From assembly GCA_030390025.1 (NCBI GenBank), contig CM059435.1:94364001-94428000 (forward strand): a stretch of DNA of 64,000 nucleotides, given 5' to 3'. The notes under the pieces are model-generated. The model had not been told where the DNA came from and made no database searches. It worked only from the letters and a program-made list of their open reading frames with translations. A program made the translations under genes and the position numbers. Within the stretch, counting starts at the first letter, position 1; every line of letters starts with the position of its first letter. This stretch comes from Squalus acanthias. Its lineage: Eukaryota. Below, in pieces: positions 1,454-4,719 of this stretch.

Positions 1454-2210
1454 CAAGGGTCCCAATCTTACAGCTTCTGTTATTGAGAAGTGGGGTAAGT
1501 GCATGACTCGGGGAGACCTCAAGAAGGAAAAAAGGAAGGAGAAAAATAAAATAATATACAACAAGGTCCTCCCGCAGGACTTTTTCCTCAGAGAAATAAA
1601 AGATAACTCATATTCAGAAAGAAAGTGAAGTTCATACAAAACTAAACATTTAGTTGGCTTCTGCTTCAACGAGCACATACATGGGGAACTCGCATAGTTC
1701 ATGAATTTGTGTATTTTATTTTAATCTGCAGAATTGGTCAATGTGCTATCTTCCCCTCAGTTCTTTCTCTAACCCACTAAGCTATTTTGGTTATTTGGGA
1801 ATACAGGTCAGTCCTGGCAGGATAGCACGAGATGACTTGCCACCAATGTTGCTCCCTATCTGACCAAAGACGGGTGAACTTTGAGCAGGCTAAAATGAAG
1901 TGTCAGTTTTTCTTCCCTTTTGCAGGTGGAAAGTTGCAGGCTGCACCATCTAGGTTCCTGCTGAGAACTTACCACAAGTTCCAAGGCTTCGAATGCCACA
2001 CAGCATTGCCCATCTCGGGGATACTTGCTCTGGTCATTATGTAATGACATTGTAAATATGTTCTTTTTATTTACGCATTTAAGATCATTATAATCATTTG
2101 AAAATCGGGTATGCTATCAGTGTGTTCAGCTCTCTTATCTTGTCTGAGAAAGGATGAACAATTATGTTACTAGTTTCTCTGTGAAAGTTCAGCCCAGAAT
2201 ACAAGAAAAT

Positions 2211-2700: not shown

Positions 2701-3323
2701 TGTGGTCCATATTGTCCTACCTCAGTTGCCTTTCTTGTTCTGAAACCCTGTACGTGATATTGCATTTAGCATTGTACCCACCTTAAAGGCAGCATCAGAT
2801 AACATAGCTGATATGTTCGATTAACAACAGTTCTATGATCAGTGTGAAAGAGCCATAGCACGAGGCAGTCACTTTTGAAATGTTCTGTTATTGTATGACT
2901 GTATGGATGCTGATGGAAGCCTGAGCTGATCATTGAATCCTAGAACAACATTTGCTGCTATAATCATTAATGTTATTTCACATGCATAAATTGTTCTTTT
3001 GGATTTTTACACATGAGACATTGACCCTATGGCTGGTAAAATGACCAGTTTGTACCCACAGCACAGAAAGGTATACCTGGCAATGATTTCAGGACAGAAA
3101 TCTGATGGAGCAGCTTGATAATGTCATGATCTGAAGTGTGAAAATCTAGTGGCTTAGAACTATCATTTGAAGCCTGAAATGAGGCTACAGCTTTAAAATC
3201 ACCATAGGACATTTTCTATCTTTATGCCAAGTATGTAACTTGATGGGATGGGTTTATTTAATGTTGGGTCTGGTTTTCTTTTGCTGATTTCAGTGCAAAC
3301 ATTGATTAGTAGAGCACTCTAAT

Positions 3324-3456
3324 GGGGTAATTTTAACTTTTTGGCAATAGTGTAAGCGGGGCGTTATCTGATTGGACGTCTGTTATACCCCCTCCCGATT
3401 TTCATTCCAATGAAAGCTAAAAGTTTACACTATTGCCGAGAGCTAAAATTTCCCCC
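3324..3456. mobile_element. Small MITE with ~33-bp imperfect terminal inverted repeats
   Basis: Left ggggtaattttaactttttggcaatagtgtaa vs reverse complement of right end gggggaaattttagctctcggcaatagtgtaa. Confidence 0.8.
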
Positions 3457-3564
3457 ATTCTAAAGCATAAACATGATCACCAGAAATTACAAAAAGTATA
3501 TTTCCAGGTGATTATCAGAAAATAATAAGGCCAATACATGTCATTAGTTGCTATTCTAATGCTG

Positions 3565-3695
3565 GAAGTCGCACAACACCAGGTTATAGTCCAACAGCTT
3601 TATTTGAAATCACAAGCTTTCGGAGCGCTGCTCCTTCGTCAGGTGAAGTCTTCTCACATTTGTCCACCCCAGTCCAACACCGGCATCTCCACATC
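3565..3695. mobile_element. 131-bp Penelope-like non-autonomous retroelement with internal inversion
   Basis: Perfect 12-bp TSD ATTCTAATGCTG at 3553-3564 and 3696-3707; contains hammerhead core on minus strand; resembles recalled shark Penelope pLTR repeat. Confidence 0.8.
3610..3646 (-). ncRNA. Minimal type I hammerhead ribozyme motif
   Basis: Minus strand reads UCAC-CUGACGA-A-GGAGC-AGC-GCUCC-GAAA-GC-UU-GUGA: stem I UCAC/GUGA, core CUGANGA, 5-bp stem II, GAAA, palindromic AGCU in place of stem III, NUH site CUU. Confidence 0.75.
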
Positions 3696-4719
3696 ATTCT
3701 AATGCTGAGCTTTGTAGAGCTGGTAAAATGTAAGTGTGCACATATAAATAGTCCAGAAAAATGGTTTTGTTTTTGACTAGTAATTAAAGTGGCACCATCT
3801 TCATTAAAGTTTTTGCCACTGTTTTTTTCTTGTATTGCAATGCTGTAAATTGCATTGGAACACATTATTGCTTCACATGTGTGTAATATCACGGTGGCAA
3901 AAATAATCCACAGCTCTTCATTCTTCCTAAACTAGAAAAAAGGTTTACAAAGCACTCCCCCTCCCCCCACCCTCCCCATGGGTGGGCAGGACCCTGACCC
4001 AGCCAAACCCCAAGGACTGCTGTCACATTATCCTGACCCTTAAATTGTGTGCAGTTTTCAACATGTGAACAATCATATCAGTCCCCTTAAATATATTTTC
4101 CTGTAAATACCACAACACAAAACGACACAGTGACTTCGCAAAATATATATGTGTTCCCTTTTCTGTAATAAAATAAAGTCAAAACTTTTTTGTGAAGAGG
4201 GTGCACTTTATTACAATATAAAATGAGCCAAACTGACCAGACACAATCTGGATACTTCATTGCATTACTTGACCATCTGATACCCAGCAACAACAAAAAA
4301 TGAATACATAAAGAAGAGGGGTGGAGTAAAGTCTATTGGTCTCTTTATGTATTAAACTTTCTGTGGGGAAAAAAGTACAACATTATTATTGTTTGCATAT
4401 GAATTATTATATATATTCAGAATTTGAAAAGGTTTGAAGCTGACATGCTAAATGATTACAACTGCAGAACATCAGCAGAATACTGATCCTCTTGTAGCTG
4501 GAACTCTGAAATTGTATTTGTTAATAGCTGTGCCCATATCCCTTAATTGGCTTGTTATACATTCTTGCGAGGTTACGTAATTTTAAATGCTATATTCCCT
4601 TACAGTATAAAACTGTGAATAGTCTATATATAAAAGCATAATGAATGAAATGTAAAAAAAATCAAAACATAGTTCTAAATAATGTTTTTGGTGAATTTCT
4701 GTGCTCATTGATGACCCAG

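Follow-up and report, generated by a model that had tools for sequence, protein, structure and literature searches.

A 131-bp insert in the genome of Squalus acanthias, flanked by a target-site duplication (TSD) and containing a minimal hammerhead ribozyme motif, is a rearranged 5′-end scrap of a common Penelope-type element and no mobile unit itself. It lies in a 64,000-nucleotide stretch of DNA, here called the window, and comprises an inverted and a direct piece of the 5′ end of a Penelope-like element (PLE), which were probably laid down in one dead-end integration with both cut target strands priming reverse transcription. This reading is carried by the identity of both pieces with a parent locus, L074, by their orientation, by empty sites in related organisms, by the rarity of the inner junction and by the fixed outer ends of the sister copies. 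Judged by its sequence, the window copy is a genuine and recent insertion, a dead-end stub left by a Neptune-like Penelope element; the locus as such is ordinary. The preliminary description of this DNA had taken the 131 bp for a young, retrozyme-like parasite of a PLE: the PLE hammerhead, the partner element and the youth hold up, whereas the 131 bp as a mobile unit does not.

The family itself is of modest importance, in that it bears on how PLEs make inverted ends and tails (PMC8557442, PMC11167929). We lean towards the view that its tens of thousands of copies log Penelope integration, including twin-strand priming, cap copying and the joining of cDNA ends. A young family with an intact-looking parent yields exact predictions for the start site, the two priming sites, the cap base and the uncleaved template. 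It also carries a warning: in genomes of this kind, most hammerheads that stand alone between TSDs are debris and not retrozymes.

The insert and its parent element

The components of the insert are collected in Table 1, with PLE positions numbered from the A of ACTTCACC as +1. A TSD-like pair of matches is by itself not rare (12 of 100 shuffles), and ATTCTAATGCTG has no further match in the window when up to one mismatch is allowed. In contigs of runs X23 and X24, from related organisms, position 3552 is joined to 3696, with 143 letters skipped and one ATTCTAATGCTG kept; in a third organism (X19, X21), one contig crosses the site with 18 letters compared with 160 in the window. The insert is absent from all four contig sets compared, representing three related organisms. 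Empty sites with a single ATTCTAATGCTG establish a true target duplication and a genuine insertion, and the perfect 12-bp repeat reported earlier on both sides is therefore what it seemed. The insertion postdates the split from organisms with flanks that are a few per cent different. Its recent date, proposed previously, is borne out by this absence and by the two pieces of the insert, which show no differences from L074; the CpGs between 3565 and 3695 are indeed unmutated, although they number five and not the two originally counted.

Table 1. Features of the insert in the window.
Feature	Position	Strand	Basis or remark
Left TSD copy, 12 bp, ATTCTAATGCTG	3553..3564	+	Single copy at the empty site of X23, X24
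Inverted arm: PLE 5′-end bases +85 to +1	3565..3649	-	Identical to L074 +1..+85
Minimal type I hammerhead	3610..3646	-	Motif, place in PLE pLTR, covariation; predicted to cleave poorly or not at all
Hammerhead stem I	3646-3643/3613-3610	-	
Hammerhead CUGACGA, extra A	3642-3636, 3635	-	
Hammerhead stem II	3634-3630/3626-3622	-	
Hammerhead GAAA, GCUU	3621-3618, 3617-3614	-	
Inner junction GAAGT-C-TTC	3646..3653	.	
Direct piece, the PLE 'tail', bases +82 to +129	3650..3697	+	Identical to L074 +82..+129
Right TSD copy, 12 bp, ATTCTAATGCTG	3696..3707	+	Single copy at the empty site of X23, X24

The make-up of the insert emerged from a genome search, which split the 131 bp into two parts found on opposite strands in other copies. 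At the inner junction, C3650 can be read either as +82 of the direct piece or as a cap-templated base of the inverted arm. The 3′ end of the direct piece is the AT of the ORF start codon and overlaps the right TSD by 2 nt; in long copies, the tail reads on into the ORF. The window copy has no TATA box, which was left behind, and no tandem array, and its hammerhead is antisense to its tail, from which it follows that the RNA template did not resemble the window DNA.

Among 20 long loci examined, only L074 retains an unbroken frame, of 891 amino acids. Its layout is pLTR, ORF and pLTR in direct orientation, with the pLTR hammerheads 3,132 bp apart and the tail leading into the ATG; it begins 7 nt upstream of +1 and has its own 11-bp TSD. 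The protein matches RVT_1 (E = 2.8e-9, above the Pfam cut-off), and its C terminus is GIY-YIG-like, with VY-x-C-x3-C-x4-YIG plus R, H, E and N, which we counted as a CCHH motif. A Pfam search of the protein gave no GIY-YIG match; it has Atlas neighbours at 0.97, with GIY-YIG on 31% of the members of one cluster. Its linker, read by eye, is C-HGNL-C-KT-C, that is, CX4CxxC. A CX2-5CxxC linker is described as preceding the C-terminal GIY-YIG in Neptune and as absent in Penelope and Poseidon (PMC8557442), and by this feature of its predicted protein L074 is classed as Neptune-like among EN+ PLEs. An autonomous PLE with the same pLTR, the search for which the preliminary description had proposed, has thus been found, complete with reverse transcriptase and a GIY-YIG-like end. 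The family is also present, across pLTR and ORF, in the assembled contigs (putative RNA) of four organisms, in a comparison that covered 4 of 24 contig sets; assembled contigs carry no information on start, strand or cleavage.

No host gene was identified in the window, which holds several other repeats. A 139-bp MITE-like element with 35-bp imperfect terminal inverted repeats adjoins the insertion (3321-3459) and is multi-copy in the contig sets of related organisms. Fragments of LINEs, which we take to be CR1/L2-like, lie at 13655-15441, 29032-29251, 31460-31660, 52019-52243 and 56166-56215 (reverse transcriptase C terminus; repeats D4, D6 and D7), and one repeat of at least 650 bp occurs at 501-1175 and, in opposite orientation and 87–88% alike, at 52927-53600.

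The hammerhead motif

The minus-strand motif (3646-3610: UCAC CUGACGA A GGAGC(AGC)GCUCC GAAA GCUU GUGA) has the core and stems previously described and corresponds to +4..+40 of the PLE, with the ATG from +128. It contains all of the features of a type I hammerhead (the CUGANGA and GAAA core, an NUH site, stems I and II, and a palindromic 15.2-16.2), with a predicted cut between 3614 and 3613, and its location within the pLTR of a PLE agrees with the suggested Penelope-type origin. A descriptor search found no second match in the window. The proposed check against Rfam covariance models came back negative, with no hammerhead match at the gathering score nor at E ≤ 10. The folding energy of the motif is unexceptional compared with shuffles (z of −1.1 to −1.4), and the 131 bp and the region +1..+150 are likewise not beyond shuffles. 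Because the fold is unexceptional, the identification rests on the motif, the PLE pLTR setting and covariation, not on energy.

Covariation in stems I and II, another check suggested at the outset, was found. Among 19 subfamily variants (drawn from 26 that occur at least twice), compensatory changes from C-G to U-A affect stem I in five rows and stem II in two, with variation also at N7, in loop II and at the cut base. Of the stem cells, 98.8% are paired, with slid controls at 49% or less, although this percentage and the invariance of the core are partly built in by a filter that demanded the core and most pairs. Because both stems show compensatory change, the motif appears to be kept by selection in active lineages, with the caveat that the core was required by the filter. 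In the small set of young arms (n = 35), mean divergence is 2.1%, with changes mostly at CpG and subfamily sites; 30 of 122 arms surveyed were left unparsed.

Variants of the motif occur elsewhere in the family. In one subfamily (L090, L121 and L131), C replaces U4 to give a CCGACGA core, in most cases accompanied by a compensatory U-A pair in stem II. In L074, a second, broken hammerhead lies just 3′ of the ORF stop (1700-1750, minus strand), about 320 nt upstream of the working motif, with CUGACGU, a 5-bp stem and GAGU replacing GAAA. It recurs in L061, L062, L064, L066 and L070, and is likely a relic of an older pLTR, present in all of the matching long copies checked.

On the minus strand of the window, stems I and II are predicted to be able to form, with pair probabilities of 0.37 and about 0.5, respectively; in two-armed copies, the predicted pair probability is 0.0, such that the stems could not form. 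Cofolding of two hammerhead units gave a swapped stem II and not the active dimer, in an energy model that is silent on activity. Because a lone minimal hammerhead did not cleave in PMC4209133, poor or no cleavage is predicted here and activity is unlikely.

Junctions, 5′ ends and the proposed integration

Exact matches to a 31-mer from the tail number 32,980 in the genome; the window junction type has five, with T as the centre base in two and A in three. Loop II, position +52, the tail variant and the outer end are not the same among these five copies, and such unlike backgrounds indicate that they arose separately. Sister copies were sampled as the first 90 of 100 tail matches listed, on contig C1 (0–8.3 Mb). 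An adjacent inverted arm is present in 51 of them; among the 39 in which our parse detected none are second arms, copies without inversion and members of older subfamilies. The inverted arm starts at +86..+97 in 46 of the 51, the direct end falls at +122..+139 in 89 of the 90, and the TSD is 12–13 bp in 36 of the 51. The inner junctions are of 45 kinds among the 51 inverted copies: in 13 the inverted arm extends 5′ of the direct arm by a margin of at least 10 nt, and in 8 the reverse holds. The window copy is the extreme end of this junction continuum. Of the 51 copies, 3 were dropped for a short TSD; among the 48 parsed, an overlap of at least two bases between target and element occurs at the inverted end in 20 copies and at the direct end in 14 (11–12 of the 48 values are negative, with point changes or added bases). 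The target end AATGCTG is an imperfect match to the RNA near +85.

Two further models of copy structure were set aside. A perfect palindrome as the main form reflected query bias, near-perfect centres numbering 1,001 sites and junctions being variable, and a master palindrome that flips was dropped on the same grounds. Some copies deserve mention in their own right. L122, L125 and L126 have a common inner junction (-7|-73) at two independent sites (L125 and L126 share a TSD and represent one duplicated insertion, whereas the TSD of L122 is different), which may reflect either a joint that recurs or a small lineage of master copies. L031, L033, L044, L048 and L224 join the ORF interior directly to +1, at GAC in three; these look like cDNA that ended at the cap and jumped onto RNA, and may represent a route to partial tandems.

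Position +1 behaves as a 5′ stop. A non-native base stands just before +1 in 2,651 arms, compared with 146 for the same test before -3, although about one in six of the 2,651 belong to a sister subfamily with a native T (5 of 30 read). Counted by hand, the first 100 such arms listed have G at this place in 66 cases, where the partner arm would predict 38% (P = 1e-8); among 25 true breakpoints examined in their sequence context, 18 have G. The parent base is C. All 23 pattern-matched arms have TATATATG, a TATA box, 30-34 nt ahead of +1 with a diverging spacer, and +1 falls inside an Inr-like TTCACT, a type of motif noted in rotifer pLTRs (PMC3846280). From these sequence features, we infer that +1 would be a capped Pol II start, with the cap copied as an extra base. 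The cap reading has a caveat, in that G is abundant at the end of the partner arm and most G junctions are also readable as 1–2 nt of microhomology. A splice acceptor at +1 was rejected, there being no AG before +1 and the upstream partners differing. Arms continuing past +1 to -6 number 5,791, which exceeds 2,651 and indicates that a second, longer template is commoner than the one ending at +1; the 3′ pLTR of a long RNA would fit this longer template.

Palindrome centres agree with this reading. In a hand count of the first 50 of the 1,001 near-perfect centres, 22 are GAAG(T/A)CTTC, 8 have an additional G or C that neither arm supplies, 4 are simple blunt joins, 11 are ambiguous (GAAGTGACTTC; compatible with or without a cap) and 5 are other. 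Relative to the tail, the centre base of the 22 is T in 8, A in 11 and unparsed in 3. Two GTC-3′ ends pairing across a T:T mismatch would give GAAG(T/A)CTTC, with T or A decided by a coin-flip at the centre.

That copies reach +1 implies an uncleaved template RNA. At the predicted cut (+37) there are 409 breaks, compared with 147 at +41 and 91 at +33, and for about a third of 30 such breaks read in context, stem I microhomology suffices. The excess at the hammerhead cut is modest and in part microhomology; a minor cleaved-template class is possible.

Two nearly fixed outer ends about 40 nt apart, together with the likeness to a lizard PLE, point to two primings on one sense template. We propose that an endonuclease would make a 12–13-nt staggered cut, after which priming would begin near +129 from one target strand and near +85 to +92 from the other; the tail would be the stretch in between. 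Each cDNA would extend towards the RNA 5′ end at +1, and the two would be joined wherever they stopped; in the window copy, one would have reached +1 and the other would have stopped at about +82. The template would be a capped sense RNA, uncut by its own hammerhead, with the cap copied as an extra base and the hammerhead as a passenger in the insertion. From the sister copies, it is likely that the element copies capped, uncut RNA from both sides of a DNA break. If true, this mechanism would explain the inverted pLTRs, the tail and the T/A alternation at palindrome centres, and one-armed copies would both exclude fold-back and be rare copies in which the hammerhead is free to fold.

The same parent and priming could instead have produced a perfect two-armed palindrome, from which a deletion driven by the hairpin, running from one CTTC (or GACTTC) repeat to the other, later removed +2..+81 of the direct arm. 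At this locus the two histories are indistinguishable, since loss of the direct arm between two CTTC copies gives the same junction. Its register is moreover that of the commonest perfect centre, three of the five one-armed junctions are A-type with 6 nt of homology, and the predicted fold of two-armed copies is a hairpin of 85 bp at about −184 kcal/mol. We nevertheless regard later deletion as unlikely: the window copy lacks any other accumulated change, asymmetric junctions form a continuum in which several have added bases typical of integration joining, and the relatives compared carry an empty site, with no two-armed ancestor seen.

Twin priming also has to be weighed against a model of self-priming or folding back in which the template is antisense. 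Head-to-head palindromes of rotifer Penelope elements are interpreted in this way (PMC3846280), and under such a model the G before +1 would be microhomology only. Some junctions do coincide with palindromes inside the element, AAGCTT at +31 (L106, L153) being one case. A fold-back copy of the direct arm, however, cannot at insertion yield the 13 of 51 copies in which the inverted arm extends further 5′; these, and the window copy, hold sequence missing from the direct arm and fit only with a later deletion. The two outer ends have fixed positions that overlap the TSD, and the stops accumulate at the sense-strand Inr, making self-priming very improbable. Least credible is the original proposal of a protein-free, retrozyme-like 131-bp unit, transcribed, self-cleaving and mobilized by a PLE. 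The motif is intact, young and bounded by a TSD, its stems can form on the window minus strand but not in two-armed copies, and the -7|-73 junction at two independent sites leaves room for recurrent or master forms. The count of the window junction, five against 32,980 tails, has already largely refuted this proposal; those five copies share no common background, there is no tandem and no internal TATA box, and hammerhead and tail are on opposite strands.

Comparison with known systems

The architecture of inverted pLTR, tail and TSD is already published (PMC3846280, PMC8557442), and the cap-base evidence would appear to be our sole addition to that picture. A literature search, mostly outside subscription journals, returned nothing on shark PLE hammerheads, PLE twin priming or a cap-derived G in PLEs. 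The closest architectural match is Pen2a_Av (PMC3846280; scheme in PMC8557442), for which EN+ PLE insertions are described with an inverted, 5′-truncated pLTR, a 30–40 bp tail and a TSD. Shared features are the inverted pLTR beside direct sequence, a tail of about 40 bp on one side, the TSD, a pLTR with a TATA box and Inr-like TCACT, and a tail running into the ORF start. The window insert differs in having no ORF and a direct arm that is little more than the tail, and TSDs here are 12–13 bp compared with 8–10 in Pen2a_Av-type insertions. In contrast to the self-priming on antisense template described in PMC3846280, our evidence favours two primings on sense RNA.

As in the metazoan PLE pLTR hammerheads of PMC4209133, stem I is 4 bp, an extra base lies between A9 and G10.1, G10.1-C11.1 is paired and a palindromic AGCU replaces stem III; stem II is 5 bp here compared with 7–8 bp in Schistosoma, and U occupies the cut position. 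That work describes opposite-strand hammerhead pairs 100–700 bp apart and single motifs from truncated PLEs, and its available text includes none from cartilaginous fish. The window copy resembles the non-LTR (animal) retrozymes (bioRxiv 10.64898/2026.07.22.740005) in being short, protein-free and derived from a PLE pLTR with a type I hammerhead. Retrozymes are described there as head-to-tail tandem repeats with the hammerhead in at least two consecutive units, unlike the window copy, which is single, internally inverted and unamplified.

In mechanism, the nearest system is PAc, a Poseidon element of Anolis carolinensis, for which both target strands are reported to be extended in vitro, two reverse-transcription starts bound the tail and uncleaved RNA is the main template (PMC11167929). 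Our family would share all three properties, as far as its sequences suggest. The PAc hammerhead overlaps the start codon, whereas here it ends 87 nt before the ATG; PAc primes 111–118 nt inside the ORF, whereas priming here would be at or just before the ATG (PMC11167929). L074 also has a Neptune-type CX4CxxC linker, unlike Poseidon PAc. A cap-derived base goes without mention in the available text of PMC11167929. Such a base does have a counterpart in LINE-1 and SVA, whose full-length 5′ ends can carry an untemplated G that is interpreted as a copied cap (PMC4859970). LINE-1/SVA twin priming likewise gives a 5′ inversion within the TSD and small indels at the joint (PMC4859970); the PLE family differs from it in enzyme class, in having no poly(A), in a second priming site that is nearly fixed and in inversion being the rule.
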